Shown here piece after piece: positions 1-62,700 of a DNA stretch of 64,000 bases. Each line of letters opens with the position of its first letter. Positions within the stretch are counted from its first letter, which is position 1. The notes beneath the pieces were generated by a model. It did no database searches. It was not told the origin of the DNA and saw nothing but the letters and a program-made list of their open reading frames with translations. The position numbers were made by a program, and so were the translations under genes. The stretch spans positions 62,001 to 126,000 of IMG/VR virus record IMGVR_UViG_3300042691_036566; one strand, written 5' to 3'. The DNA is from an uncultured virus (IMG/VR IMGVR_UViG_3300042691_036566) (Duplodnaviria; Heunggongvirae; Uroviricota; Caudoviricetes).

Positions 1-1
1 T

Positions 2-85
2 CCAAAGCATATCTTTAGTGATTGGGAATTAACAGATGAAGAACAAGGATCTGGTGAAACAGATAAAGTTCGGAAAGATATATAA
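2..85 (+). CDS. 5'-truncated member of the short paralog array
   Basis: Frame 2 reads PKHIFSDWELTDEEQ...*, matching the aromatic-x-L-x-E C-terminus of the downstream paralogs. Confidence 0.5.
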   Translation, partial: PKHIFSDWELTDEEQGSGETDKVRKDI

Positions 86-251
86 AAATAGAAGATGGCA
101 AGGTGATGATTATGTCGTTCCAACTGAATACATGAGAGACTCTCATATGATTCATGTTGTCCGCTTAGACGATCCCAAGCATGATGGTTATATAACAGTA
201 AAAGGTTTTATAGACGGATACGGGTTGGTGGAAAATGTTAATACCGGGTAG
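36..251 (+). CDS. short SH3/DUF1653-like array protein
   Basis: N-term IKFGKIYK, YVVPT, C-term YGLVE shared with neighbours. Confidence 0.7.
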   Translation: MKNKDLVKQIKFGKIYKNRRWQGDDYVVPTEYMRDSHMIHVVRLDDPKHDGYITVKGFIDGYGLVENVNTG

Positions 252-456
252 AATCTATCGAGCAAGCAATTGTGAATATGTACTAGTTGATGAGGTAATA
301 GAGGATAGAAATGCTGCTGGTGGATATTATGTAGCATTTACAGTTGTTGGCGGAAAACCAGTTGAAGGAATAAATGGTAGAATGTTTGAACCATCACACG
401 GATCAGATATAGATTATATAGGTCATTGGAAGTTAGTAACTAAATGGGTAAAATAA
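235..456 (+). CDS. short SH3/DUF1653-like array protein
   Basis: LIPGRIYR...YVLV...HWKLV. Confidence 0.7.
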   Translation: MLIPGRIYRASNCEYVLVDEVIEDRNAAGGYYVAFTVVGGKPVEGINGRMFEPSHGSDIDYIGHWKLVTKWVK

Positions 457-926
457 TGGAAAACAAAACAACAAAATTTTGTAATGGATGCAAACAAGAA
501 AAAGATCTTTCAGAGTTCACAGATAGAAAATATAAAAAAAGTGGAAACGTAGGGAAATACTTTGTTTGTAAATCATGTAAGCAGATAAATAACCGCAAGT
601 GGGCCTTGTCAACAAAAGGTGGTTGGGTATCTACAATGCTAACAAAAGCAAAGACAAGATCAAAAGAGAAAAATATTGAATTCAATATCACAAAAGAAGA
701 TATAAACATTCCAGAGTATTGCCCTGTATTAGGAATCAAGATCGAAAAGAACCCAGATGCAATAACAAAAAACTCACCCAATCTTCCAACCTTGGATCGC
801 GTAGACAATAACAAAGGATACATTAAAGGAAATATTAAAGTTATAAGCTATAGGGCAAATGCATTAAAGAACAATGCAACCCTAGAGGAATTGGAGATGG
901 TCATAAATTATATGAGAGAGACATGA
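444..926 (+). CDS. phage HNH-type (homing) endonuclease with Zn-binding N-terminus
   Basis: CxxC...CxxC; AKTRSKEKNIEFNIT..IPEYCPVLG..PTLDRVDNNKGYIKGNIKVISYRAN; start possibly ATG 456. Confidence 0.8.
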   Translation: MGKIMENKTTKFCNGCKQEKDLSEFTDRKYKKSGNVGKYFVCKSCKQINNRKWALSTKGGWVSTMLTKAKTRSKEKNIEFNITKEDINIPEYCPVLGIKIEKNPDAITKNSPNLPTLDRVDNNKGYIKGNIKVISYRANALKNNATLEELEMVINYMRET

Positions 927-1024
927 AAATAAAACTAGGAAAGATTTATAAGATAAGGGCAACAGAATCATGGATCTCTATGGAAGTATGGCATAAGGCA
1001 AAAGCTAAATGGGAAATAAAATAG
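923..1024 (+). pseudogene. 33-aa truncated array paralog (not in ORF track)
   Basis: MKIKLGKIYKIRATESWISMEVWHKAKAKWEIK*, ATGA overlap with HNH stop. Confidence 0.5.
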
Positions 1025-1353
1025 AGATAGGAAAACTTTATATAAACATCCTTGATCAAAAAAGACCTCCAGACATATATTGTGTAACGGGGTTTAGACA
1101 AGAAGAACAAGGAAAGTTTGTAGAGTTTGTATGGATGAACAATAGAGCAGATGCAGAACAGAAACACGGTGATCCAAAATATGTGGAGGAAACTGCAATT
1201 GAATTGGGAGAGTGGATAAAATTAATTGAGGAAGAACTAGATGGACAAGAAAGAAAAAATCAAGATAGGCAGGATATACAAAAGAAACCCCAATCAACAA
1301 AGTATATATCCAGAATATGTCCTGATAACAGGCGACTACTCAGTAGGCGATAG
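1009..1353 (+). CDS. array paralog (long 3' overlap with next gene)
   Basis: KIEIGKLY...YCVT...WIKLIEEE. Confidence 0.65.
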   Translation: MGNKIEIGKLYINILDQKRPPDIYCVTGFRQEEQGKFVEFVWMNNRADAEQKHGDPKYVEETAIELGEWIKLIEEELDGQERKNQDRQDIQKKPQSTKYISRICPDNRRLLSRR

Positions 1354-1468
1354 AATGGGTAACAAAAGATATTCATATCACAGGATAGACAAGGACAAGG
1401 AATCAATTGCATATATATCCCATGTGGATCTGTATTTCCATTACCAGTTGGTTGAGGATGATGTTTAA
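1241..1468 (+). CDS. array paralog
   Basis: KIKIGRIYKR..YPEYVLIT..HYQLVED. Confidence 0.75.
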   Translation: MDKKEKIKIGRIYKRNPNQQSIYPEYVLITGDYSVGDRMGNKRYSYHRIDKDKESIAYISHVDLYFHYQLVEDDV

Positions 1469-1672
1469 ATGCTGGAGACAACAGTGGTAAAACTTGGTAG
1501 GATATACAAGAGCTTAAAAACAAATGAGTACATCGTCCCAACCGAGTTTATCAACATAATAGAGGCGCAGTTTGTTAAGTATAATGTGATTGAAACTGGT
1601 AACTATGCAATAATGAAGCTAGGCGAGTTTATAACAAGATGGAGACTCATGGAGGATAGTTTTTGGGAATGA
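1469..1672 (+). CDS. array paralog
   Basis: VKLGRIYK..EYIVPTE..RWRLMED. Confidence 0.75.
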   Translation: MLETTVVKLGRIYKSLKTNEYIVPTEFINIIEAQFVKYNVIETGNYAIMKLGEFITRWRLMEDSFWE

Positions 1673-1914
1673 CAAAAGAAAAAGTATATCTAGGGAAGGT
1701 ATATAAGTTAAAGTCATTAGAGAACTATTCAGCAATTGCAACATTTCCAAGATACATGATATTAACACATAAAGTATATCGACAAAAAGAATATTATATG
1801 ACAATGTATAGATACTACGATATAGGTTATGCATCTGTATCGGGGAGACCTATAAGCGAGTATGATATCACATCGTTCTATAAGGTTATAGAAGAAGGTG
1901 AGTGGCAAGAATGA
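1669..1914 (+). CDS. array paralog
   Basis: VYLGKVYK..FPRYMILT..FYKVIEE. Confidence 0.7.
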   Translation: MTKEKVYLGKVYKLKSLENYSAIATFPRYMILTHKVYRQKEYYMTMYRYYDIGYASVSGRPISEYDITSFYKVIEEGEWQE

Positions 1915-2183
1915 TTAAGCTTGGGAGGATATACAAAAGAAAACCAAGTAATAAAGCATCACCATATCCAGCTTACCTGATACCAACAGGTGTTAACCAG
2001 TTAATGACTACAGCGTTGCAAACAAGATACTATTATGTAGATGTAGAGAGGGAGAGAGATTATGGAAGTTATGAGTGTATAACGGAATCATCGCTGCAAT
2101 TGTTTTATGAGTTGGTTGAGGGGGGAATAGATAGGGGAATGGAGATAGGAGAGATACGGCATATCCTGCTGTATATAGGCTAA
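1911..2183 (+). CDS. array paralog (last)
   Basis: IKLGRIYKR..YPAYLIPT..FYELVEG. Confidence 0.7.
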   Translation: MIKLGRIYKRKPSNKASPYPAYLIPTGVNQLMTTALQTRYYYVDVERERDYGSYECITESSLQLFYELVEGGIDRGMEIGEIRHILLYIG

Positions 2184-2384
2184 TAGAAAAAAATGACATA
2201 AAAAAGGTATTTAGGTTATATATGGGCTGCTCGGATATGTCAATACAACCTGATGAATTTGCTATGTGGGAGTAGTATTCCACCAGTATAGCTCTACGCA
2301 TAGGGTGCCACTATCCTACCGATATAGTAGGGGGTATAGGATAAGGCGCAAGTGTCTACTCTATCGGTGCAGTATAAAAAGGGG

Positions 2385-2413
2385 TTGACTTCACAATCAG
2401 CCCGTGATATAAT
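2385..2413 (+). promoter_or_regulatory. sigma70-type promoter
   Basis: TTGACT-17-TATAAT with TG extension. Confidence 0.85.
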
Positions 2414-2466
2414 GCAAGATGCATTTGTGGTCCATATGGGTAACTTAACAATATAAAGGATATGCC

Positions 2467-2607
2467 GTGTATACCGTAAAGAACACTAAACCAACGCTAA
2501 CCGTAATTGTCGAAAGTGGGGAGAAAACAAAAAACAAAATCGTAAAGATCTATTATGATAACCTGGCAATTGAGATTGTAACCGATAAGCTAAATGGTGG
2601 ATATTAA
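2467..2607 (+). CDS. 46-aa hypothetical protein (not in track)
   Basis: AAGGA RBS, GTG start, MYTVKNTKPTLTVIVESG...GGY*. Confidence 0.55.
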   Translation: MYTVKNTKPTLTVIVESGEKTKNKIVKIYYDNLAIEIVTDKLNGGY

Positions 2608-2634
2608 AGGGCAGCTTTATAAGGGGATTTAAAC

Positions 2635-2823
2635 ATGGTATGCTATGTTCTGAAAACAGCAGATAAAGATAAAAGCAGACGCGAGTATGTACAAGCTATA
2701 TTAGCTTCAAATGATGAAGAAGCATGGACTATATCCCAGAATTATGTAAATCGTACAGGCAAGGAAGTTACTGTATATGTTAGTGAAATGTGCATGGGTA
2801 AACTAGTTCCAGCATATGCATGA
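2635..2823 (+). CDS. hypothetical protein
   Basis: AAGGGG RBS, 62 aa. Confidence 0.65.
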   Translation: MVCYVLKTADKDKSRREYVQAILASNDEEAWTISQNYVNRTGKEVTVYVSEMCMGKLVPAYA

Positions 2824-3023
2824 TAAACCCTGTTACCTATATAGCTAGAAACTGATTACTTAGGATATCCCAGTATCAGAGAACACGGTTGGTGAAGTCC
2901 CTTACACAGTGTTCAACAGCAAACAGATATGCTGCGGGTGAATAAGGTAAACACACGCACTGCCAGTCAAACCGATTACACAGGCGGCTGGTTCTATCCG
3001 TAGTGTTTGATTCCCTGTCCACT

Positions 3024-3066
3024 TCACACAGGGTCGCTGGTGTGGGTGGGGAATCTGTGATAAACT
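3024..3066 (+). promoter_or_regulatory. partial copy of phased promoter cassette (A)
   Basis: CACA-N4-GTCGC-TGGTGT-17-TAAACT. Confidence 0.55.
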
Positions 3067-3183
3067 ACTGAGAGTGGCGAGTGTGGGCAAAGCCAGCCGC
3101 CTATATCCTACGGATAGAGTAAACCAGCCGCCGTTTCACTCCTGGTGTCTCGAGGCTTCGCTGGTAGTGTGGGTGCCGCTTTG

Positions 3184-3257
3184 CTCTAACCATGTTGTTT
3201 CTTTGTGGGTCGATTCCACTCCTGGTCGCTTGTGGTTTTCTGTGGTTCTGGTACAAT
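3184..3257 (+). promoter_or_regulatory. phased promoter cassette (C)
   Basis: CTCTAA-N15-GTGGGT-N6-CACT-N4-GTCGC-TTGTGG-16-TACAAT, followed by leader hairpin TGAGG/CCTCA. Confidence 0.75.
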
Positions 3258-3309
3258 AGGTCTATAAGTTGATGAGGAATGAACCTCACAATAAAGAAGG
3301 AATAAAACA

Positions 3310-3489
3310 ATGACAAACAATATCAAGATCGGAATGCGAATCTCGACGCGAATCAATGGAACTGGCATTGTTGTGAGCGGTTTTGGTGATCGCTGGATTG
3401 TCAAGTTTGACAATGATACTTGGGATGGTCCTGTTTATTCATGGAATATCTGGAGTGAAGATGGTAACACTCACAGTGACAGCTTCTAA
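3310..3489 (+). CDS. 59-aa SH3/KOW-like protein (not in track)
   Basis: AAGGA RBS; MTNNIKIGMRISTRINGTGIVVSGFGDRWIVKFD...; stop TAA lies inside the next cassette's TTCTAA box. Confidence 0.75.
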   Translation: MTNNIKIGMRISTRINGTGIVVSGFGDRWIVKFDNDTWDGPVYSWNIWSEDGNTHSDSF

Positions 3490-3558
3490 AGACCGAGTTT
3501 AATAGTGGGTTGAGTACACTGTCAGTCTCTGGTGTTCTGGCACGTCTTGCGGTATAAT
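3484..3558 (+). promoter_or_regulatory. phased promoter cassette (D)
   Basis: TTCTAA-N15-GTGGGT-N6-CACT-N4-GTCTC-TGGTGT-17-TATAAT. Confidence 0.8.
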
Positions 3559-3612
3559 CGAACCTGTTCGATGGTTGGGAATGACCCCACCGGGAAACAA
3601 AAGGAAGAAAGA

Positions 3613-3804
3613 ATGACGATTCTCGAAACTTGGTACAATGATATCCTCGGTCACGCAAAGGCCAACTATGCGAATGGTTGGGATTTCTTTGTCGATTCTG
3701 TCGATATGGAACTCTTTGTTGAGGATATGCGGATTTTCTATGTCCGCGAGTATGAGGACGCTTTCAATCTCTACAATACGTGGGCAATGAACCGTCCCCG
3801 GTAG
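3613..3804 (+). CDS. hypothetical protein
   Basis: AAGGA RBS, ATG 3613, MTILETWYNDILGHAKANYANGWD... Confidence 0.75.
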   Translation: MTILETWYNDILGHAKANYANGWDFFVDSVDMELFVEDMRIFYVREYEDAFNLYNTWAMNRPR

Positions 3805-3828
3805 TGAAAGTGGGTTCACTCCCAGCTA

Positions 3829-3903
3829 CTCTAAAGAGCTGGTTTAGTAGTGGGTCGGGTTCACAGCTAGTCTCTGGACCCTCGGCGCGACCCATGATAG
3901 AAT
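3829..3903 (+). promoter_or_regulatory. phased promoter cassette (E)
   Basis: CTCTAA-N15-GTGGGT-N6-CACA-N4-GTCTC-TGGACC-17-TAGAAT. Confidence 0.8.
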
Positions 3904-3956
3904 GTGTTGGTAAGGTTGACGCGCTGCAAGTGAAGCGGTCAACACAAAAGAGAAGG

Positions 3957-4010
3957 TTCTAAAGAGAGTGTTTTTTTGTTCTTGACCGCAGCGCGGTGCT
4001 GTGGTAGAAT
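3957..4010 (+). promoter_or_regulatory. short-form promoter cassette (F)
   Basis: TTCTAA-N19-TTGACC-17-TAGAAT, TG extension, two leader hairpins. Confidence 0.85.
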
Positions 4011-4080
4011 GTGCAGGTAAGGTTGAGAGGCAATAATGCCTCCAACAATGCGGGTTTCCCGCAGAAAGTAAGGAAAGACA

Positions 4081-4467
4081 ATGGCTAAGGCTAATGGTAC
4101 GGTTTCGGCTTCTAAGATGGAGGCGATTGTTGCTTTCGTTCGGAAGTTCAACGCTAACGAGAATCGCGGTTGCCCGATGGGTGCAATCGAGTATGTTGGC
4201 GGATTCTCGAAGGCCGAGATTAAGGCCGCAAAGTCGAGCGGTAAGCTGGAATCCGGCAAGGGTTCGGAAGGTGGTTTCTTTGTTGCTGGTGCAAAGCCGG
4301 TTGCAAAGGGTCCGGTTGTGAAGGCAACCGTTAAGAATCAGATGGCTGCGTTTATGCGTATGCTGTCGGTTGGTCAGACGCTCGATGCGGATACCGTCGA
4401 GCAGGCAAAGGCGATTCTGCGTGATTACGACGCGCAGAACGCGAAGCGCCGCAAGTCGGACGACTAG
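4081..4467 (+). CDS. winged-helix-like DNA-binding protein, paralog 1
   Basis: GKLESGKGSEGGFF resembles the Rrf2-type wing (L-x-S-x-(R/K)-G-x-x-G-G-aromatic); basic; strong RBS. Confidence 0.6.
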   Translation: MAKANGTVSASKMEAIVAFVRKFNANENRGCPMGAIEYVGGFSKAEIKAAKSSGKLESGKGSEGGFFVAGAKPVAKGPVVKATVKNQMAAFMRMLSVGQTLDADTVEQAKAILRDYDAQNAKRRKSDD

Positions 4468-4471
4468 CATA

Positions 4472-4520
4472 TAACCCGGTTCCGGGGGCAAACCAGCCCC
4501 CGGCACGGCGCAACGGGTTA
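4472..4520 (+). repeat. conserved bulged hairpin motif, copy 1
   Basis: TAACCCGGTT-CCGGGGGC-AAACCA-GCCCCCGG-CACGGCGC-AACGGGTTA. Confidence 0.8.
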
Positions 4521-4536
4521 ATACTTAAAAGGAGAT

Positions 4537-4752
4537 ATGATGCAGACTTTCGGTTGTGCTACTTGTGGTGAAAAGACTTTTGCTCCATCTGCTGTGCTTT
4601 GCGAAACGCACGAGATGCAGGTGCTTGGTATTACTCGCGAGATGCTCGACGCTAATGATGGCGACGATGTTTTGCTCAATACTCGGCAGCTTTGGGATCA
4701 GTGGACAAACGAGAATCCTTGGTCAAACACTTTTAATGTGGAGCGTGGGTAA
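4537..4752 (+). CDS. small Zn-finger-like protein
   Basis: CATC...CETH; AAGGAG RBS. Confidence 0.7.
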   Translation: MMQTFGCATCGEKTFAPSAVLCETHEMQVLGITREMLDANDGDDVLLNTRQLWDQWTNENPWSNTFNVERG

Positions 4753-4964
4753 TGGACGTTTACGCGGTTTTGGATGTTGAAGCATATCAGGGCGAGCAGA
4801 CGGTTGCTCTTTTCTCGACGTATGAGAAGGCAAAGGCGTTTGTCGAGCGCAGGTATGACATGAGTGAATACAAGTACGACGGCGATTCTGCTTGGTTGTA
4901 CTTTGGACACGATACGTCCAGGATTGAGATTGCAACCGTCACGGTTGACGAAAGGGATGAATAA
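4752..4964 (+). CDS. hypothetical phage protein
   Basis: TAATG coupling; VYAV...ALFSTYEKAKAF. Confidence 0.75.
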   Translation: MDVYAVLDVEAYQGEQTVALFSTYEKAKAFVERRYDMSEYKYDGDSAWLYFGHDTSRIEIATVTVDERDE

Positions 4965-5200
4965 TGACTCGCAAGGTAACAAACACGATTCTGGAGATGA
5001 TTGAGGATGGAATCCTCGACCGTGACACGGTAATCAATGCGTGCCTCAAGTATATGTCCGAGGACGACGTTGCGGATATGGCACACGCAAACGAGTTTAT
5101 TGTCGAGGACGAGGAAACCCTCGATGATGATACCGAGGAAGAGGAAGATGATACTGATCCCAATGCGGATTGGTATGATACAAGCAACGAGTTCCTCTAA
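4964..5200 (+). CDS. acidic hypothetical protein
   Basis: TAATG coupling; ACLKYMSEDDVADMAHANE plus D/E-rich tail. Confidence 0.75.
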   Translation: MTRKVTNTILEMIEDGILDRDTVINACLKYMSEDDVADMAHANEFIVEDEETLDDDTEEEEDDTDPNADWYDTSNEFL

Positions 5201-5327
5201 CGCTAGAGCCTCGATGATAGTTAGTTCTATCAATAGAGGCGGGGGCTGGCACTCTATCCCAAGTGTTAAATGTTGGATATTCTAGGGATAGAGGTTGCCC
5301 GCCGCCGCCCATGTGTCCAGAAGTTAA

Positions 5328-5402
5328 CTCTAACGATGTTGTTTTAAAGTGGGTCAATCTCACTCTCAGTCTCTTCCGTTCTCGACCGACTTGGTGTAAT
5401 AT
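5328..5402 (+). promoter_or_regulatory. phased promoter cassette (G)
   Basis: CTCTAA-N15-GTGGGT-N6-CACT-N4-GTCTC-TTCCGT-17-TAATAT. Confidence 0.7.
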
Positions 5403-5485
5403 ACACACATCATCGACGCGCTGGTGGATGCACGAAAGGCCCCAGCCGCCGCTATCCTTGGGATAGTACTAAACTCGGATCTTTG

Positions 5486-5560
5486 CTCTAACTGTCGAGT
5501 TTAATAGTGGGTCGGTTTTACTGACAGTCGCTTCCAAGGCATGGGGTCTTGTGGTAGAAT
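5486..5560 (+). promoter_or_regulatory. phased promoter cassette (H)
   Basis: CTCTAA-N15-GTGGGT-N6-TACT-N4-GTCGC-TTCCAA-17-TAGAAT; 5551-5579 identical to 4001-4029. Confidence 0.8.
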
Positions 5561-5619
5561 GTGCAGGTAAGGTTGAGAGAGGGAATGGTCCCTCCCAACA
5601 ATAAGGAATGAGGAATCAA

Positions 5620-5991
5620 ATGACGGTTGAGACTATGACGCAGAACGAGATTGAAACTCTGGTGAATGAGATTCGTAACACGATCCAGACTATGCGTAAG
5701 GCTCGACTGCTTACGCGAAACGCGATCATGTCGCACATTGGCAAGAACAATGCCGTGCTGCGTCGTGAGGGTGAAAAGCTCAACGCTCTGGGTTTTGAGC
5801 TTGGTGATACCCGCGAGACTCGCAAGTTGCTTATCTGGAATGAGTATCTGGGTATGGAACTTGAGCGTCAGACTGGAATCCCCGCTGAAATGCGGAAGTC
5901 AGCCGCCGTTACTGCTAAGGCAAACGGTATCACTCGGATCAAGGCAAGCAACGTCAATGCAACCACCGCTTTCCTCATGGGTAAGCGGTAA
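5620..5991 (+). CDS. hypothetical protein
   Basis: GAGGA RBS before ATG 5620; codon usage like neighbours. Confidence 0.75.
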   Translation: MTVETMTQNEIETLVNEIRNTIQTMRKARLLTRNAIMSHIGKNNAVLRREGEKLNALGFELGDTRETRKLLIWNEYLGMELERQTGIPAEMRKSAAVTAKANGITRIKASNVNATTAFLMGKR

Positions 5992-6004
5992 GAAAGGAAA
6001 GAGC

Positions 6005-6106
6005 ATGGAAGATATGATTATCGTGCAAATGGTCTGCATTGGGATTGCCAGCCTCTCGCTGGGATTTGTTTTCGGACTTTCAATCAACCTCAAGATCAAG
6101 GAGTAG
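6005..6106 (+). CDS. 33-aa single-TM peptide
   Basis: AAGGA RBS; MEDMIIVQMVCIGIASLSLGFVFGLSINLKIKE. Confidence 0.65.
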   Translation: MEDMIIVQMVCIGIASLSLGFVFGLSINLKIKE

Positions 6107-6108
6107 GA

Positions 6109-6285
6109 ATGAAGGATTTCAAGCGTGGTGTCGAGGGAATGAAGAACGAGCGTTGGACCATTCACGTCAAGATTGATGGTCACACGATTGCTCGCGGAAA
6201 GCGCGGGGTTCGCAAGTGGGTCCGCGACCTCAAGCGTATGTATCACCGCGAGATGCGTCGAGTGAAGTTCGACGCTGAGACATAG
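6109..6285 (+). CDS. 58-aa basic protein (not in track)
   Basis: AAGGAG RBS; MKDFKRGVEGMKNERWTIHVKIDG... Confidence 0.7.
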   Translation: MKDFKRGVEGMKNERWTIHVKIDGHTIARGKRGVRKWVRDLKRMYHREMRRVKFDAET

Positions 6286-6289
6286 AAGG

Positions 6290-6329
6290 TTCGCTGGCGG
6301 TGAAATCCAGCCGCCCAAGGCGCAGCGAA
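6290..6329 (+). repeat. conserved bulged hairpin motif, copy 2
   Basis: TTCGCT-GGCGG-TGAAATCCAG-CCGCC-CAAGGCGC-AGCGAA. Confidence 0.8.
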
Positions 6330-6331
6330 AG

Positions 6332-6385
6332 TTCTAAGGTGAGTGTTTCTTTGTACTGGACTTCACAACCCGGTCGTGGTACACT
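6332..6385 (+). promoter_or_regulatory. short-form promoter cassette (I)
   Basis: TTCTAA-N19-TGGACT-17-TACACT; upstream part homologous to 3957-3987. Confidence 0.8.
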
Positions 6386-6471
6386 CTGTCCTGTAAGTTG
6401 GTGAGAGGGAATGGTTCCCTTGAACCTATCACTCAAAGACGGTTTGACCGTCAGAAGGAATGGGAAATAAA

Positions 6472-6837
6472 ATGGCTACCTCTATCGTTGAGTTCGTTCG
6501 TGCTTTCAATGCCAAGGAGGGTCGTGGTTGCCCTGTTGGTGCGATTGAGTACGTCGGTGGATTCTCGAAGAAGGACATTAAGACCGCTAAGGATAAGGGT
6601 CAGATTGTTTCGACTAAGGGAACCGATGGTGGTTTCTTCCCTGCTGGTGAGGTTGTTAAGACTTCTAAGGCTAAGGTGAAGGATTCTCTCAAGGCCGATA
6701 TGGTCGCTTTCATCACGGCAGTTGCTAATGGCAACGGTGATGCAAAGATGGTTGAGACTGCTCATGCTCTGGTTGCTCGGTATAACGCCGAGTGCGAGAA
6801 GAAGAAGGTTGCTGCTTCTAATCGCAAGACCAAGTAG
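6472..6837 (+). CDS. winged-helix-like DNA-binding protein, paralog 2
   Basis: RGCPVGAIEYVGGFSK..GQIVSTKGTDGGFF aligns with 4081..4467; start 6460 or 6472. Confidence 0.6.
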   Translation: MATSIVEFVRAFNAKEGRGCPVGAIEYVGGFSKKDIKTAKDKGQIVSTKGTDGGFFPAGEVVKTSKAKVKDSLKADMVAFITAVANGNGDAKMVETAHALVARYNAECEKKKVAASNRKTK

Positions 6838-6848
6838 CAAACAAACTA

Positions 6849-6891
6849 ACCCGTTCGGGCGGTTTCCAGCCGCCCGCATGGCGCAACGGGT
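6849..6891 (+). repeat. conserved bulged hairpin motif, copy 3
   Basis: ACCCGTT-CGGGCGG-TTTCCAG-CCGCCCG-CATGGCGC-AACGGGT. Confidence 0.8.
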
Positions 6892-6913
6892 AACTGGAAA
6901 AAAGGAGAAAGTA

Positions 6914-7081
6914 ATGCGAATCGTAGCACTGAGTGACGGCACTTGGGATATCTGTGCGGACATTGTTACACTCTCGGACGATCAATATGAGCGTTTGACA
7001 AGTGGTGAAGTGACAATCGCAGATCTGTATGAGGAAGGCATCGAGGCGGAAGTTATTCAAACCTTTAATCGGGAGCAGTAA
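6914..7081 (+). CDS. hypothetical protein
   Basis: AAGGAG RBS; MRIVALSDGTWDICAD... Confidence 0.7.
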   Translation: MRIVALSDGTWDICADIVTLSDDQYERLTSGEVTIADLYEEGIEAEVIQTFNREQ

Positions 7082-7082
7082 A

Positions 7083-7286
7083 ATGACGAAGCATGAGAAG
7101 CTAGAAAAGGCGAAGGTTGACCACAAGTACGCGATTGCTCGCATCGAGGAGCTGGAGCGTGAACTTACAAAGCAGCGCACGATTGCAAGTGATCGACTGC
7201 ATTCGCTGCGTAAGCTGGACCCCAAGACATATGGGGAAATCAAGAAGGGTTATGTTGATTGGTATACCCTTTCGCGTTCGGAGTAA
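7083..7286 (+). CDS. coiled-coil hypothetical protein
   Basis: GGAG RBS; ATG 7083. Confidence 0.7.
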   Translation: MTKHEKLEKAKVDHKYAIARIEELERELTKQRTIASDRLHSLRKLDPKTYGEIKKGYVDWYTLSRSE

Positions 7287-7294
7287 CTAAGGAA

Positions 7295-7429
7295 ATGAAG
7301 CGTGTGCTAGCCGCCGTTTTGGCGGTTGTAACCCTAACAAACTGTGTAGCAGAAAAGGAGTGCAAGGTGAGCGAAAAGGATTGCGTTGCTCTCTGGTATA
7401 TGATGCTTGATAAGAATGCGAGGCGATGA
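7295..7429 (+). CDS. 44-aa putative lipoprotein (not in track)
   Basis: MKRVLAAVLAVVTLTNC... Confidence 0.6.
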   Translation: MKRVLAAVLAVVTLTNCVAEKECKVSEKDCVALWYMMLDKNARR

Positions 7430-7521
7430 TGGCAGGTGTACTGATTGCGTCAATGATGCTTGGAGTTAGCTGGGCGTTTGGCAAGATGGTTTATAAGGCA
7501 ATCGAGGTGCCGCGTGATTAA
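7426..7521 (+). CDS. 31-aa TM peptide
   Basis: ATGA coupling; MMAGVLIASMMLGVSWAFGKMVYKAIEVPRD. Confidence 0.55.
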   Translation: MMAGVLIASMMLGVSWAFGKMVYKAIEVPRD

Positions 7522-7615
7522 TAAGGAAGTTGTTATCGAGGCTTTGACTGCGGTTGGTTTGGCAGCTGTAGTGGTTGCTGCGTTCTGGGTTGTTTACATT
7601 TTTGAACTGGGGTAG
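7514..7615 (+). CDS. 33-aa TM peptide
   Basis: GAGGT RBS, GTG; MINKEVVIEALTAVGLAAVVVAAFWVVYIFELG. Confidence 0.6.
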   Translation: MINKEVVIEALTAVGLAAVVVAAFWVVYIFELG

Positions 7616-7617
7616 AT

Positions 7618-7689
7618 ATGATCGCGTTGACAGTCTGGTTTGCGGTAGTTGCTTTGATCGTAGGAGTTACCACGGAGGTAGTAGGGTAA
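7618..7689 (+). CDS. 23-aa TM peptide
   Basis: MIALTVWFAVVALIVGVTTEVVG; TAATG coupled to next gene. Confidence 0.5.
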   Translation: MIALTVWFAVVALIVGVTTEVVG

Positions 7690-7832
7690 TGGGGGATGAT
7701 CAGATAAGCTATAGCAAGGAGCGGGGTCAATGTGATACCTGTGCTAGATTCACCTGGGTACTCACTCAGTACCTGGGTGGGTGTATTGTTGCACGGTACT
7801 GTAAGCGGTGCGAACCAAAGGAGATGGACTAA
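7689..7832 (+). CDS. small Zn-finger protein
   Basis: CDTC...CKRC; GGAGG RBS. Confidence 0.65.
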   Translation: MGDDQISYSKERGQCDTCARFTWVLTQYLGGCIVARYCKRCEPKEMD

Positions 7833-8215
7833 TGAGTGCAAAGGCGCAACACTTGTTTGACACGGCAAAGATTCAGCTGGTTAGACTCAACGAGGATTGG
7901 AGTTTGAGTGGTGATACTTTTTGTCACCAGACTGCCTCGATCATTCGATCAGCTGTGTGGAGTGATCGCGATGAGTATCAAAATGTTTACAGCTTGCAGC
8001 GTGCTGTTGCACATCTAGCTAGACGCTTTGCAGACTATACTGATCCCGACAGCGGTCCATGCAATACTGTTGAGCAGAGCAACGAGATTGCTCGGTGGTC
8101 TAATACGTTTGCAGCTGCATCGGATACGGTTAGTTTGCTTGAGGATACTTTGCCTGATAAGCAGCGTGAACTCTTAGCAAATGAAACAATGAGCTTCTAT
8201 CGACAGCTGTTTTAA
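7832..8215 (+). CDS. hypothetical protein
   Basis: AAGGAG RBS, TAATG coupling. Confidence 0.75.
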   Translation: MSAKAQHLFDTAKIQLVRLNEDWSLSGDTFCHQTASIIRSAVWSDRDEYQNVYSLQRAVAHLARRFADYTDPDSGPCNTVEQSNEIARWSNTFAAASDTVSLLEDTLPDKQRELLANETMSFYRQLF

Positions 8216-8392
8216 TGTTATTGCTATCGCTAAAAAACTTCTAGGGGTAGAAGGGGGACTTCCCCTCCCCCTACCCTCATGGTGGTATATATACGGAAAG
8301 TATGTCTACCGTGATTACTATTTTCATATAATAACGCGCCTAGGTCAAAAATATATCGCGGGTCATTTTTTGAAACTTTTTAGTTTTCAATT

Positions 8393-8401
8393 AACTACTT
8401 A
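8393..8401 (+). promoter_or_regulatory. candidate late promoter motif RACTAHTTA (also 8991, 9196, 13262, 18761, 21561, 24240, 53453)
   Basis: Recurrent 9-mer upstream of genes lacking sigma70 promoters. Confidence 0.55.
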
Positions 8402-8438
8402 CTGGTAAACTGTACCACAGAAAAATGGGGAAAAAAAC

Positions 8439-8918
8439 ATGAAAATTACAAGAGAGTTTTTAAGAAGAGTAATCGCGGAAGAATTACAGAGAGAGGTAGA
8501 TAGTTCAGGCGAGATGAACTCTATCGTAAAAGAGTTAGAATTCATAGCCGAGAAATTATCAGAAATCAATAAAAACGAATACGATTTTAAAGGTTTGCAA
8601 GGAAAGAACCCAATTCCAGATCTAGGAAATATGTTTAAACAACATGCTGATTTTATGAAGGTAACACCACCAGGTAGTCCAAATTCTAAAACGCTAGTTA
8701 GCGGATTAACAAAAATATTTGGATACCTAGAAAACATGATCGGTGATCAATCAGTGCAACAAGCTAACGCATATTACAAAGATCCTACCAACGCTGCAAG
8801 AGGACTAGGCATGTTTTACGCTAGAAACCTAGCAGTAGGCAACGACGCTCTTGAGCCTTTCCCACCAGAAAGTCGTAAAAAACTTCTAGATCGCATCAAA
8901 GCACTATATGCGGTATAA
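8439..8918 (+). CDS. hypothetical protein with MKITxxxLRRVIxEE leader (putative head-internal)
   Basis: MKITREFLRRVIAEE. Confidence 0.75.
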   Translation: MKITREFLRRVIAEELQREVDSSGEMNSIVKELEFIAEKLSEINKNEYDFKGLQGKNPIPDLGNMFKQHADFMKVTPPGSPNSKTLVSGLTKIFGYLENMIGDQSVQQANAYYKDPTNAARGLGMFYARNLAVGNDALEPFPPESRKKLLDRIKALYAV

Positions 8919-19674: not shown

Positions 19675-19963
19675 GGGGATGACTTGGTTTCGACAAAGGT
19701 AACTAAAAACAAAATGCAGGAAGTCTGCGAACAGCTACAGACTTTAATAAACGGTTCAACAACACAAAAGCCAACGATGACGTTGACTCTGAATTCTACG
19801 CCCTAGCTGCGTAATTCTTGGGCTGGCAACTTGCCTCGAAACAGAAAAGTTGCAATTTTGTTTTAAACTGTAATAAATTGTAATATCTTGTAAGATAATC
19901 CTGTGTATCATTTTGTAGAATACGTATTTTTGGACCGGGGTTCGACTCCCCGCATCTCCACCA
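19675..19963 (+). ncRNA. ssrA: tmRNA; tag ANDDVDSEFYALAA (19770-19814)
   Basis: 5' GGGGATG...TTCGAC; 3' GGGGTTCGACTCCCCGCATCTCCACCA; G3.U70 pair; tag ORF ends LAA*. Confidence 0.95.
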
Positions 19964-46374: not shown

Positions 46375-49300
46375 ATGTCTAACAGCCCAGATAGATACGC
46401 TAGATTAAATAAAAATAATAGATTACCATATAGAGAAGAAAAGCCAACTCATATTTTATCAGTTGGATCGATTGTATACTATGATTTTGATAGTATAGTT
46501 AACCAAGATTTAACACAGCCAGTTGTTGAAAGATTTTCTAATTCAGACACTAAATTTTCAGTGTTGCCAGATTTTAATACTGAAACACCAGTATCAAATA
46601 TGGAAGAAGAAGAGATAATTTTTGACGAACTTACAGACGAAGAATTAAAAGGTCTTACATTCCCAGACGCTCAACCACAAGAGCCTTATGCTGCTGATTT
46701 GGGGATTGATAATAATTTATCATCTACAGAAACACAAGAATTTTCATTTCCAAAAACTGTTGCAAATACAGTAATTGATAGAAGAGAATCTGAAGGTTTA
46801 TATGGTGCAATACCCACAACAACAGATTTAATATCTCAAACTTTCTTTAATGAAACTTTGGGACCACCTAGAGAAGCAGAGCAAACCGAGGTTGAATATT
46901 CAGTTACCATAGTAGAAGATTTTATCGGCATTCTTGGATTGTTTAGTAAAGTGTCTTTAATGTTAGATTCTGGCCCTATTGAATTTTTTGTAAGAAGAAA
47001 CCAGCTTACTCCAATTGAAGGATTAGAATATAGCTTTTTAAAGCCAGTAGAAATACCTAGGATTGGTTATTTACAGGAAACAGATATAATTGGATGGTCT
47101 GATAAAAAACCATTTATTGTTTATTATGATGAAAGGAGTGAATTGTATTACTGTTCAGTAGAAGCGGAATATGATGGCCTTGAACTTACTGATGAAAAAA
47201 TACAAAAATATGTTGAAGATGCTTATTTCACCGGCTTAAGATTAATTTTTAAATCTAACGCTAAGAAAAACTCTGAAGATTATATAAAACAAATGTCTGA
47301 TAGATTTTATCTATTCGGATATGCTAGAGATTGGGCTATAAAACTTAGACCTTGTTCAAATTTTTATACACTTGTAGTGTTTCCTAAAAAATATCTATCT
47401 TCTACTGATTTAATTGATTATAGAGCAGATCCACTACAAGCTGCTAAAGATGGAGTTACTGGTGGCCTATTAGATCCCTCAGTAAATCCAGAAGATATTA
47501 AATACATAGTAACTTATAGTTTTTTAAACTATAATAGCTTTGCTGAAACTATAAAAGATATATCTAAAATTTTAGCTAGTAGAGGAGAGGAGCAATTTAA
47601 TTTTGCCTTAAAAGCAGCTGATCAGTACATGGGTGCTTTAACGGCTGACAATTATTTAGAGTTGATAGAATTAGATTTAAGAAAAGAAGCTAAAAAATTC
47701 TATGATAAAGATAATGTAGGAAACTTTTTAATAACTATTAAAAAATTATTAGAAATAAATACCATAGAACATGATGTTTTATATACAGATGCTACAAAAA
47801 ATAATATAGCTTTTGGATTGACAGATCAATTTAATATAGCATATATAGATATCGTTAGAGATGGTATAGCACAAACTTTTGTAATTGATGGGTATATATT
47901 TGAAAATGAATTTGGAAGTTATGGGGTTATATCAAATAGAAGCGGCTTCTTTTTATATAACTACTGTACATATAAAATTATTACCGATTTAGCAACATAT
48001 GAAGGAGAATGGAATAAAGAGCTTAGAAATAATTTAGATATCGATAAGTATATAGAAAAATTTGTTATTCCACAGCCAAAAGAAATAGATATCCCTAAAA
48101 GAGATTTTGATTGTGCAAAAAATAACATGAAAAAACTTTGGGAAGATGGAATTATAAAAGGTTATAATTCAATAAAAGCCGTAGCACCTGTTGCAGAAGC
48201 TAACTTTAAAAAACAACTAGCTTATGCTAGAGGCGGCAAAAGAAGATGGATAGATTTTGATGCAGAAGCAGACAAACAGGCAGCATCAACTCCAGCAGCT
48301 ACTTTACCAACAACAGATCCTGAACCTCCTACCTTTGGTGATGATACCCTTAGTGCAATTAAAAATGCTGGTTATGGAGATTGGAGTAAACCTGGTCCTG
48401 CTGCTTTGCATCTTCTCAAAAAAACTCTAAGAGAGACAAACTTTCAGAGAGCTTTATTACAACAAATTATTTGTTGGATAAGGGATGCAAATAATCAACA
48501 AGCATTGGCTAATTTAGATTCACAATTTAATAGTGATTTAAAAAAAAGGATACAAGAAGCTTTAACTAAATTTTTCTGCACTCCTTTCATGGATATGTTA
48601 ATTAAAGCTTTAGCTGCTTACAAAGTTCCAAAATTTAATCCTTCTGATATGTCAAAAGCCTTAAGAGATGCGTATGTTACTGCATTATCACAAGCTATAA
48701 TTGAAACTTTCAATATTGCTATAAAAGAGCTTATAAAACTTATGGCTAATTGTTCAAAACAAGGACAAGGCAAAAATTCTCCTTTTACTTCAGATCAAGA
48801 ACTAGGTCTTTCTGCAGCACTAGATGCAATTTTAGATAATCAAGATAATCCTTTTTCTAATAGTTCTATTGCGGACATATATGGAGCAATGGGGCTTCCT
48901 ACAGGAAATTCTGATGAAGACATACAAGAAAGAGAGAGAGCAAAAGAAGACTTAAAAAATTTAATTGCAGATATTGCATGTCTTATGAATCCTACAGAGA
49001 TTTGTAGATTGATTGCAGAAGGTACAGCAACAGATGATATTTTATCTTTGGTCAGAGCTATAATAGAAGCTAAGTATCCAAATATATCATCAGTACTAAA
49101 AACCAGATCTGAAGTGGAATACTTATTTCAAAAATTAGGACAGATTTTAAATATTTCAGACGTGTGCAAAAAATTAGGAGATCAAATAGCTCAAGAAAAT
49201 ACCAATATTTGTTCTACGGAATCTGCTACAAAAGCATTAAAAGATGCTCTAGCACAAAACGGCCTAACACCAGAACAAATTGAGGGTTTAATTGCTGATG

Positions 49301-59700: not shown

Positions 59701-62700
59701 ATTCTCTTCTGTAAATGATTTAAATACAATAATTGGTCACAAAATAAATAACTATTCAGATAACTATAAACAATTAGAATATTTTAGAACTCTATATTTT
59801 AACAAACTAGGTTCTACACCAGATCTAGAAAAATATATAGAATTCTATAAATGGATAGATTCTTCTATAATAGAAATGCTATCAAGACTAGTTCCAGCTT
59901 CAGCACAATCTAATAACTTTATATCAAATACAATAGAAAGCCATGTGATGGAAAGAAATAAAATCCGTCAATCTAGAGCTTTTTCTATGATAAGCAATCC
60001 TCCACAAAAAAGCATATTTATTTCTAGTCCAACATCTATCACAACAACAAATATTAATTATAGCGATATTAAACCACCTTCTTCTCCTTCTGGAAAAACA
60101 TGGGCAAAACAAAGAGCGAATAGAGTGACCGATGTTTCCTCTTCGAGTGGAGTTTTAGAAGTTGATGCAGATAGAGAACAGATCAGAAAGGCTTCATATC
60201 ATAAGAATATAAATACAATTTATAACGCATTTGATAAAAATTTAAATATAGCTTATAACAATTATGAAGATAAAGTTAGATTATTTTCAAATGCATTATC
60301 AGTGGTTTCAAGTGTTCATGACTTAAAACCAATGAATAAGTATAAATTTATAAAGAGTCTATATGCACAGGGAAATAATTTTAATATAATCTTCTCAGCC
60401 AGTGTCAATGAATCAACTGAAGATTTATCGCTATTGAAGCAAAAATTGTATACTTCAATAAGTGGGAATCTGGATGATCTATTTTCTTTAAACTCTGAAG
60501 GCATTTTACCTTTCAGTGTATTTAAAAATACATCAAATAATACAAATTATATTACTAATAACTTTTCTGATGCCTATACAGAAACAAGAGAAATTGGTTT
60601 ACAAGGACCATTTACCGATGCACATGTAGGCGGGAACTCTCATAGACATAATTCTATTAATCAAACTTTAGATAGAAAAGAATTATATCTGACAGATGGA
60701 TCTTCTTCTGTAGCACCAGCTGCATCGATTAATGGATTGTTATACAGAAATACAAGAATTAAAAGTCCGGTGAATATAAGAAATATTCAACATAATATTT
60801 CTAAAGAAGAACTTGGTAATTATAGTAAAGGATATGAAGTATTATCTTTAAATAGCAGATATGATACAAACACTGAATTGATTAACAGTGGAGCCATGAA
60901 CTATTCTTCTACTGCAAGTTCTAATAGTATATTTAGAGAAAAACAATTAAGAGAAAGAAAAGCAAATTCAACAGTTATAGTTAATAGATTCTCAACCCCT
61001 GGTGCAGAAACAAATGCAAGAGGAGCATTAGACGAAGATAGTGAAGAGTATAGTGTATATAACTCAATAAATAATAGAAACCAAAAAGTAAGAAAATATT
61101 TAAATGCTTGGCATTCAAATACTTCTAGTATTGATTCAAATTTTCCTTCTTTACACAAGGTAAATAAAAATGCTCTTTATCAAGCAGTTTTATCAGGTAC
61201 TTCAACAACCATAACCACTCAAGGAGTAGAATACGATAATCAATTTGTCCAGCACCAAATTCCTAGATCTGATAGAAATTATAGCTGGATTACAGCTTCT
61301 GTAACTGGTAATTTAGGGATTGGTGGTTATATAAACAGCCAAGCATCATCTAGTTTAGCCAACTATATAACTTTCTTAACAGGTGTCAATGAAACAATAG
61401 AGTCTATTTATGTAAAAAATAGAGATTCAATAGTTCAATATGGCCTAGAGATATATTTTAAACCAGATGGAAAAAGACTTTATGCTACTGCTGGCGGTGT
61501 GGCTGCAAATTCTACATTATGGCAATATGATCTTCAATATGCTTGGGATATAACAAGTATTATATCTACTGGGTCTATTAACATTGGAACTCTTTTAGGT
61601 GGAAGTGCTGCTGGTATATATCCTCAAGGAATTTGGATTAATCCCAATGGAAGAGAAATTTTTATACTAGATGAATACAACTCAAGAATAACAAAATCTT
61701 CTACTTTAGCAGCTGCAGATGCTTGGAACTTTTTAAAATTATCTACAGTTGCAGCACAAACGCTAGTTACTGGTTCTAACATGGGTAAGGGATTAGAGTT
61801 TAAACCAGATGGTACAAAGATGTACATAGCTAACAATGTAGATAAAAAAATATATCAATTTTCTTTAGCTACTCCGTTTACAATTAATGCTGGTGTTACT
61901 CGCGATAGCGCAGAAATTCATACATCTAGTAGTTTTGCAACAAGTCTTACTGGATGTGCTGTTTTAATGGGAAATCCTGACTCAATTAGATTTTCTTCTG
62001 ATGGAACAAAATTATATGTCAGTTCTGACGTTCAAGACGACGATCCATTGTTGTTACCAGACGGATTATATGAATTTACTCTTTCAACTGCTTGGGATAT
62101 ATCATCCGCAAGACTTACAAATAGAATAATTCAATATTCCAGCTTCACTAATTATGATATGACAGCAGCTGGTTTATATGTTAGAGATACAAGCGGTACA
62201 TTAGAAAATATCAGTTTCTATGTATATGATTTCCTTAATTCTCCGCCGAACATTTATAATGTAATCAAAAAAGTAGAACCAGTATCAGTAAGCAATATCT
62301 TTATGGGAAATACTAAAACATATGATAGATCATCTAATCTTGTATATTTAAATAATGAAGCATTAACTGATTTAAGCGGACCTAATAGAAATCCATATAG
62401 AGAATTTTTGTTAAATAATAACTCAGTTTATAGATATCCTTCTTGGAAACAGATAAGAAATAACGATAACAATTTAGTTAGATTAAACAAAAAAGAAAAT
62501 ATTATAACAGTTCAAGATAATGAAATATCTACACAGGATAGACAATCAAGTGGGTTTTTGAATACATTTAGCTCGTACAAAGAACCGCCTGTGCAGTATA
62601 ACTATCCTATTAAGCAAGTGATCCTAGATAAAACAAAAAACTCTATTTTAACAAATCAATATAAATTAGAAGAAAATAAAATATTTTATGAGCCATACAT

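Follow-up and report, generated by a model that had tools for sequence, protein, structure and literature searches.

Introduction

The early RNase III sites (R sites) of phage T7 are hairpins between genes of a host-transcribed early region, in which an asymmetric loop or bulge can restrict cutting to one strand, so that a protective 3' hairpin stays (PMC3867540, PMC1540722). Single RNase III cuts are common (PMC6212723); a protective 3' hairpin remains after those made at a bulge or loop, and coaxial stacking is possible for short helices of the substrates (PMC1540722, PMC3867540). Here we describe a bulged hairpin that occurs three times in a 64,000-base stretch (the window) of an uncultured tailed phage, positions 62,001 to 126,000 of the IMG/VR record IMGVR_UViG_3300042691_036566. 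Like the R sites it lies between genes, in a region whose host-type promoters are consensus matches; unlike them it has varying stems and a fixed bulge sequence, whereas the known determinants of RNase III lie in base pairs. The three hairpins are real and represent a narrowly distributed, undescribed phage RNA motif. Tentatively, we read them as a cis-acting signal for mRNA 3'-end formation or processing, in which the bulge would be read by a protein.

The T-box antiterminator has a fixed UGGN in a 7-nt bulge on the 5' side. In the present element the bulge is 8 nt long, lies on the 3' side and has C, U or A before its GG, and a T-box bulge was accordingly rejected. The put site of phage HK022 consists of two stem-loops and the lambda nut site of boxA plus boxB; by inspection, ours is a single bulged hairpin. 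Intrinsic terminators are likewise GC-rich hairpins directly past a stop, and one relative (L194, below) has a U-tailed hairpin with a shared outer stem. The element, however, has an invariant 8-nt bulge and a second stem, and lacks a + strand U-tract in the window and in the relatives L087 and L088; the absent U-tract directly after the stem rules out an intrinsic terminator. The first five bulge positions, CANGG, recall the CsrA/RsmE motif (A/U)CANGGANG(U/A) (PMC5864733), but the bulge is not an apical loop, it lies away from the ribosome-binding site and the phage has no CsrA. A CsrA/RsmE site was rejected on the sequence itself, as GGC replaces the GGA core of CANGGANG in all five distinct sequences of the element. 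The surrounding region resembles the host-takeover module of phage SPO1, a small-gene cluster with strong promoter-like and ribosome-binding sites (PMC6873191), although SPO1 belongs to another phage group, the likeness is one of layout and early timing is presumed here.

Results

The virus record from which the window comes (G000) has 126,749 bases and matches a 187,450-base record (G001) with a completeness rated 100%. This is a T4-like phage of 187 kb, with Pfam matches to T4-like capsid, portal, terminase, gp32 and RecA-like genes. The original prediction had proposed three copies of a hairpin with an outer stem, an inner stem and an 8-nt 3' bulge CA(C/A/T)GGCGC, and these parts were found in all three copies at the positions proposed:

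4472 to 4520, + strand: copy 1; outer stem of 9 bp with one bulged G, inner stem of 8 bp (4482-4503), bulge 4504-4511
6290 to 6329, + strand: copy 2; outer stem of 6 bp, inner stem of 6 bp (6296-6315), bulge 6316-6323
6849 to 6891, + strand: copy 3; outer stem of 7 bp, inner stem of 8 bp (6856-6876), bulge 6877-6884

The element is thus 40-49 nt in size. The TAG stops said to precede it by 4-11 nt lie 4, 4 and 11 nt before copies 1, 2 and 3, and the reported lack of a U-tract holds for the + strand of each. Copy 2 has an alternative register, close in energy, in which part of the bulge is paired. A sequence pattern of the element gave three matches against a mean of 0.05 in 100 shuffles, and a descriptor (bulge plus both stems) gave three in the GC-rich island around the copies and three in the whole of G000, against a mean of 0.012 and with none of 2000 island shuffles reaching three; both pattern and descriptor were drawn from the copies tested, which makes these shuffle tests post hoc. 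The fold is confirmed independently of them, because orthologs show the same fold. Folding z-scores of the single copies are modest (-3.0, -1.6 and -2.4).

The orthologs were reached through the gene before copy 1. Its 128-aa protein has 35 relatives, and an alignment of 24 sequences led to four metagenome loci: L086, which is the same phage as the window, and the relatives L087, L088 and L089. A genome scan added L194, plus one spurious 15-residue match. In L087 and L088 the ortholog of copy 1 lies about 12-13 nt past the stop codon and has a rewritten inner stem with a UUCG or GCAA loop, while the bulge is unchanged. Three related contigs thereby contribute two new versions, which gives five distinct sequences, and the element is carried by four of the five phages with context (the window phage, L087, L088 and L089).

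In the five distinct sequences the bulge CANGGCGC and the U-A pair at the junction, which is the first outer pair, are invariant; the second outer pair is U-A or C-G, and the third bulge base, just before the GG, varies. Inner-stem lengths, counted from the junction, are 8, 8, 7, 8 and 6 pairs, all of them formed (37/37), and three stems are closed by U-G. The outer stem has one mismatch in L088 and the bulged G in copy 1. None of the five + strand tails has more than 4 T in 10 bases, and the element was not listed by a terminator scan. The covariation score was 0.282 compared with 0.114 in shuffles (0/500 as high), with 6 of 14 pairs changing on both sides, in a model-fitted alignment whose sequences are related, whose inner stems are out of register and which is biased towards the model.

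These comparisons redraw which parts of the element are constant. CCAG had been put forward as a conserved loop; its G is paired in all three copies, and the UUCG and GCAA loops occur with the bulge unchanged. The view that the unpaired parts are the conserved ones holds for the bulge and fails for copies 2 and 3, which are identical in relatives, stems included. Copy 2 is identical in L088 (38/38; the contig ends there) and in L089 (40/40), where the gene before it is identical at 130/178 and 82/121 positions, i.e. 68-73%; copy 3 is identical in L089 (43/43), where the gene before it stands at 345/366. The suggested contact between a loop CC and the bulge GG also fell, as two of the five sequences (L087 and L088) have no CC in the loop, and such a contact is hence not required.

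L194 shows another state of the same locus. With an upstream protein of 60% identity, it has a plain hairpin without bulge at the place of copy 1; the six outer pairs are those of L087, and the tail is 9/10 pyrimidine with 8 T in 10. The bin to which this phage island contig is assigned is bacterial and carries the title uncultured Methylococcus sp.; this may be a misbinning and is no evidence of the host. L194 also has long palindromes near promoter-like sites.

Folding energies separate neither the strands nor RNA from DNA parameters. UUCG and GCAA (GNRA-type) tetraloops are common stable RNA loops, and both independent tetraloops read as RNA-type on the + strand and not on the - strand. Together with the U-G closing pairs they favour the + (coding) strand. 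The minus-strand tails of the copy-1 and copy-3 types are U-rich, which might give the element a secondary role against antisense transcription. A structured RNA or single-stranded DNA (ssDNA) element had been proposed: that it is structured and unannotated is supported by the lack of an Rfam match (below), the compensatory stem changes of the orthologs and the RNA-type tetraloops, and ssDNA is the less likely form.

The shared loop ending of the copies has another source. CCAGCCGCC is the most over-represented 9-mer of G000, with 17 exact copies (13 on the + and 4 on the - strand) against an expectation of about 0.04 per strand in 126.7 kb. Its 27 one-mismatch neighbours have 9 copies together, two of which are CCAGCCCCC, and 251 permutations of the word have a mean of 0.10 copies. 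The word or a variant overlaps each hairpin, and elsewhere it stands alone:

4493 to 4501, + strand: DNA word CCAGCCSCC (variant), overlapping the loop and 3' inner strand of copy 1
6307 to 6315, + strand: DNA word CCAGCCGCC, overlapping copy 2
6866 to 6874, + strand: DNA word CCAGCCGCC, overlapping copy 3
2983 (-), 3093 (+), 3124 (+), 5241 (-) and 5442 (+), in the island, and 17706, 24726, 34355 and 50206: CCAGCCGCC outside hairpins in the window

The other 15 copies of G000 lie in genes and near promoter-like sites and have no hairpin. In G001 there are 20 CCAGCCSCC and none of the reversed control. The word is also present in L194, L088 and L089; L194 holds five copies, and the one in the position syntenic to copy 2 is not part of a hairpin. 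A set of 28 capsid-related fragments has 12 words and one control, which may partly reflect one conserved coding site, and the bin holding L194 had 62 matches (five of them on a single short contig, a number equal to that of L194) compared with 47 for the reversed control, no clear enrichment. CCAGCCGCC is likely a separate DNA-level signal that overlaps the hairpins here. It accounts for the shared loop ending and probably for part of the conservation of copy 2. Chi sequences are enriched in phages (PMC3784561), and the 9-mer resembles Chi and stoperator-like words as an exact short word, strongly over-represented in the phage, in coding and non-coding DNA; it differs in not being the E. coli Chi sequence, in clustering near promoter-like sites and in occurring in both orientations (13:4). 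Its reader may be Chi-like or operator-like. A literature search for the 9-mer as an intact word, in combination with 'phage', found no paper.

The Rfam scan that had been proposed placed no Rfam 15 family over any copy. At the gathering threshold the window gave only the transfer-messenger RNA (tmRNA) and two tRNAs; at E up to 10, positions 2300-8500 gave four weak matches, none over a copy and none to a ribozyme; and at E up to 1, L087, L088, L089 and L194 gave four, none at the element. For the bulge, a search of 7 instances out to 250 nt found no cis partner at a shared offset, and a pseudoknot is discarded for that range; pairing to upstream Arg codons was seen in only 3 of 7 instances, is not conserved and was rejected.

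A model of the element (R1) found exactly three copies in G001 and only the known copies in 14 further sequence sources. Two weak matches came from G002: one (E 0.08) is an ordinary bacterial hairpin that lacks the bulge, and the other has E 1.5. One of 101 genomes of the class of G002 has a match (E 3.6e-4) that apparently lies inside a gene, lacks the inner stem and was taken as chance. Among 28 capsid-related fragments, chosen from 80 loci for identity and length, 8-70% complete and possibly lacking the island, R1 had one partial match (E 0.42). Pattern scans of viral contigs (84, 85 and 18 loci) found both stems plus bulge only in loci of this phage (2, 2 and 1); scans with the promoter pattern gave no new relative of the island, and protein-led viral scans gave only this phage. 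Against GenBank phages the island DNA had no match beyond a 50-base acidic-codon stretch. The literature search gave no description of the hairpin, with the phage RNA catalogue PMC10690425 searched in part and possibly including the motif; its supplement files 3-6 hold none of the motif strings.

All three copies lie in a GC-rich island whose genes are small and on the + strand; sigma-70-type promoter-like sites recur in it, and it holds the five stand-alone CCAGCCGCC copies listed above:

about 2300 to 8300, + strand: GC-rich island, GC 0.43-0.50 against 0.27-0.37 in the rest of the window
3982 to 4010, + strand: promoter-like site, sigma-70-type, 10/12 matches, extended -10
4081 to 4467, + strand: gene before copy 1; 128-aa basic protein, N-terminal domain predicted winged-helix; first gene after the promoter-like site 3982-4010
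4530 to 4534, + strand: ribosome-binding site of the gene after copy 1, about 10 nt 3' of the stem, outside the hairpin
6109 to 6285, + strand: gene before copy 2; 58-aa Arg/Lys-rich protein (18 K+R), last gene before the next promoter-like site
6357 to 6385, + strand: promoter-like site (relaxed consensus), starting 28 nt past copy 2
6472 to 6837, + strand: gene before copy 3; paralog of 4081-4467 (48% identity), first gene after the promoter-like site 6357
6903 to 6907, + strand: ribosome-binding site of the gene after copy 3, about 11 nt 3' of the stem, outside the hairpin

The island promoters are consensus matches, and the layout around 3982-4010 is shared by L087, L088 and L194. By analogy with SPO1-type modules, the island would be an early region transcribed by the host polymerase. 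The terminator scan gave 7 terminator-like sites compared with 4.7 +/- 2.5 expected, with no convincing U-tailed one between the copies and the island end. A 48-nt repeat with a TCTAA box at its start occurs in six copies (window 2360-5534) upstream of promoter-like sites, which share a leader after the -10 box; repeat and leader are kept in L087, L088, L089 and L194.

Copies 1 and 3 probably go back to one duplication, as their upstream genes are paralogs; the 58-aa gene before copy 2 is unrelated to them. The window and L087/L088 have genes after copy 1 that are unlike over most of their length; the element thus stays linked to the gene upstream. The 128-aa protein has no Pfam or PHROG match, nor any match among GenBank phages; the paralogs form a duplicated family, also without Pfam or PHROG match, whose 35 relatives are mostly on short contigs. 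An AlphaFold model of the 128-aa protein from the 24 sequences (mean pLDDT 79.4) predicts a winged-helix fold for the N-terminal domain, most of the best structural matches being winged-helix domains (top match with Z 7.9 and 62 residues at rmsd 2.7) and Foldseek matches of E 0.05 or weaker. For the 58-aa protein, the idea of a double-stranded RNA-binding domain met a low-confidence model (pLDDT 58.8, best Z 4.6) and no such family among the matches.

Discussion

The position of the hairpins, the swap with a U-tailed hairpin in L194, the freedom of loop and stems and the fixed bulge argue for a signal of mRNA 3'-end formation or processing, similar to the early T7 RNase III sites, which we favour although we put it at just short of an even chance. 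The original prediction had named processing, protein binding and antitermination; the first two are the likeliest class and antitermination is less likely. On the favoured reading, the host polymerase would transcribe the island from sigma-70-type promoters, the inner and outer stems would stack with the bulge extruded, and a nuclease or binding protein would engage the bulge and thereby cause a cut of the RNA, or a halt of exonucleases, at this point. This would protect the 3' end of the upstream gene, in two cases that of a predicted winged-helix protein, and would separate this gene from the next one, which has its ribosome-binding site immediately beyond the stem. Such an element would be a compact, portable mRNA 3'-end signal in which the sequence of the bulge, and not that of the stems or a U-tract, is decisive, and the natural series from plain U-tailed to bulged hairpins would show a terminator position becoming a protein-read site. 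Apart from function, the analysis separates from the hairpin motif an exact 9-base DNA word that is under strong selection throughout the phage genome.

Several observations weigh against a processing signal. The helix above the bulge has 6-8 bp, below the 11 bp that the E. coli enzyme needs (PMC1540722), and a helix of 12-17 bp is reached only if both stems stack across the bulge. Neither RNase III nor CsrA was found in the 187-kb G001. A Pfam comparison of 244 open reading frames (ORFs) (24, 215 of 246 listed, and 5; excluding frames above 900 aa, most of those below 60 aa, overlapping frames and those on the opposite strand) turned up, of RNase and RNA-regulator families, only a PIN-PhoH, an RNase T-type exonuclease and a SpoU methylase. 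Nor is the fold rigid: within 200 nt of context, the outer pairs nearest the junction show low occupancy (0.06-0.42) in the copy-1 types, and the 5' strand can take up two bulge bases in copy 1 and L088 and four in copy 2. The depth is small, with four carriers and five distinct sequences. The bulge is absent from all hairpins of L194, and in one search (run X13) two contigs cease to align at the stops that precede copies 1 and 3; the element is hence not universal in the clade. Finally, the full identity of copy 2 exceeds what the fold needs, which suggests an overlapping DNA-level constraint. At window 6836, one contig of run X13 has a different sequence past the stop and, within the 30 letters covered, keeps a TTTCCAG word.

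An alternative that we consider unlikely is a factor-loading or antitermination site, at which the bulged hairpin binds a phage or host factor or the polymerase and promotes read-through. The nut and put sites located after cro act in this way. Copies 1 and 3 follow the first gene of a promoter-like site, that of a predicted winged-helix protein. The Arg-rich gene before copy 2 and the invariant single-stranded bases would also fit. Against this, copy 2 is followed by a new promoter-like site and not by a gene, a convincing U-tailed terminator to be read through is missing between the copies and the island end, a terminator-like hairpin takes the place of the element in L194, and there is a single hairpin only.

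The CCAGCCGCC word leads to a different and slightly less likely reading, a DNA-level element in which a cruciform or single-stranded hairpin shows the word to a DNA-binding protein. All three window copies hold the word or a variant, the 17 exact copies are far above expectation, the bare word stands at the syntenic place of copy 2 in L194 and folding energy does not separate the strands. L087 and L088, however, keep hairpin and bulge without the word and with RNA-type tetraloops, three of the five sequences have the closing U-G pair on the + strand, and 15 of the 17 exact words have no such hairpin.

That the hairpins are functionless terminator relics, stable structures copied with gene duplication whose bulge is shared by descent, seems improbable. 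Copies 1 and 3 do follow paralogs, the L194 hairpin is simple, and the U-rich minus-strand tails of the copy-1 and copy-3 types could stop antisense transcription. Yet the bulge stays constant while the adjoining inner stem and loop are replaced, and copy 2 follows an unrelated gene and outdoes it in identity (38/38 and 40/40 against 130/178 and 82/121).

Small ribozymes in alignments show a small size, an invariant unpaired core, a variable capped stem and an intergenic position. The element resembles them in its 40-49 nt, its invariant unpaired bases, its variable tetraloop-capped stem and its intergenic place, and might be a new self-cleaving RNA of roughly 45 bases, derived from a terminator hairpin, with bulge and junction as catalytic core; early polycistronic transcripts would then be cut to single-gene messages without host nuclease or protein. 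We regard this as very improbable: there was no Rfam ribozyme match at E up to 10, only about 9 bases are invariant, and no conserved pseudoknot partner lies in cis within 250 nt. The known small ribozymes (hammerhead, twister, twister-sister, pistol, hatchet and HDV-like) were rejected, with no model match.

Least probable of all is docking in trans of the bulge through its GCGC core with another RNA or another copy. In its favour, the bulge is mostly unpaired in isolated folds of L087 and copy 3, and the last 9 bases of a tRNA-like gene of the phage match the copy-1 bulge plus A. Against it, such a match is within chance for this genome, G000 has four other CANGGCGC matches and the third bulge base varies. 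The agreement with the tRNA-like 3' end is probably a chance one.

Other features of the phage

The tRNA-like gene itself (L214:8942-9030, G000 about 46942-47030, outside the window) was missed by ARAGORN; it has an apparent UAU anticodon, a long variable arm and a CCA end, and reaches 24.5 bits with the tRNA-Sec model, for which gathering is 47. ARAGORN listed 26 tRNAs and one tmRNA in G000; 24 of the 26 are grouped at G000 47-51.5 kb, and the tmRNA lies at window 19675-19963. Tandem genes of 60-110 aa without Pfam matches form a long run (window 1-2300 and G000 52-62 kb), and many tandem small genes of the window start with a similar I/L-G-R/K-I-Y-K-like stretch. Within a cluster of sugar-modification genes, window 38020-39213 matches the RuBisCO large-chain domain (E 1.9e-33), and its product is likely a RuBisCO-like protein.

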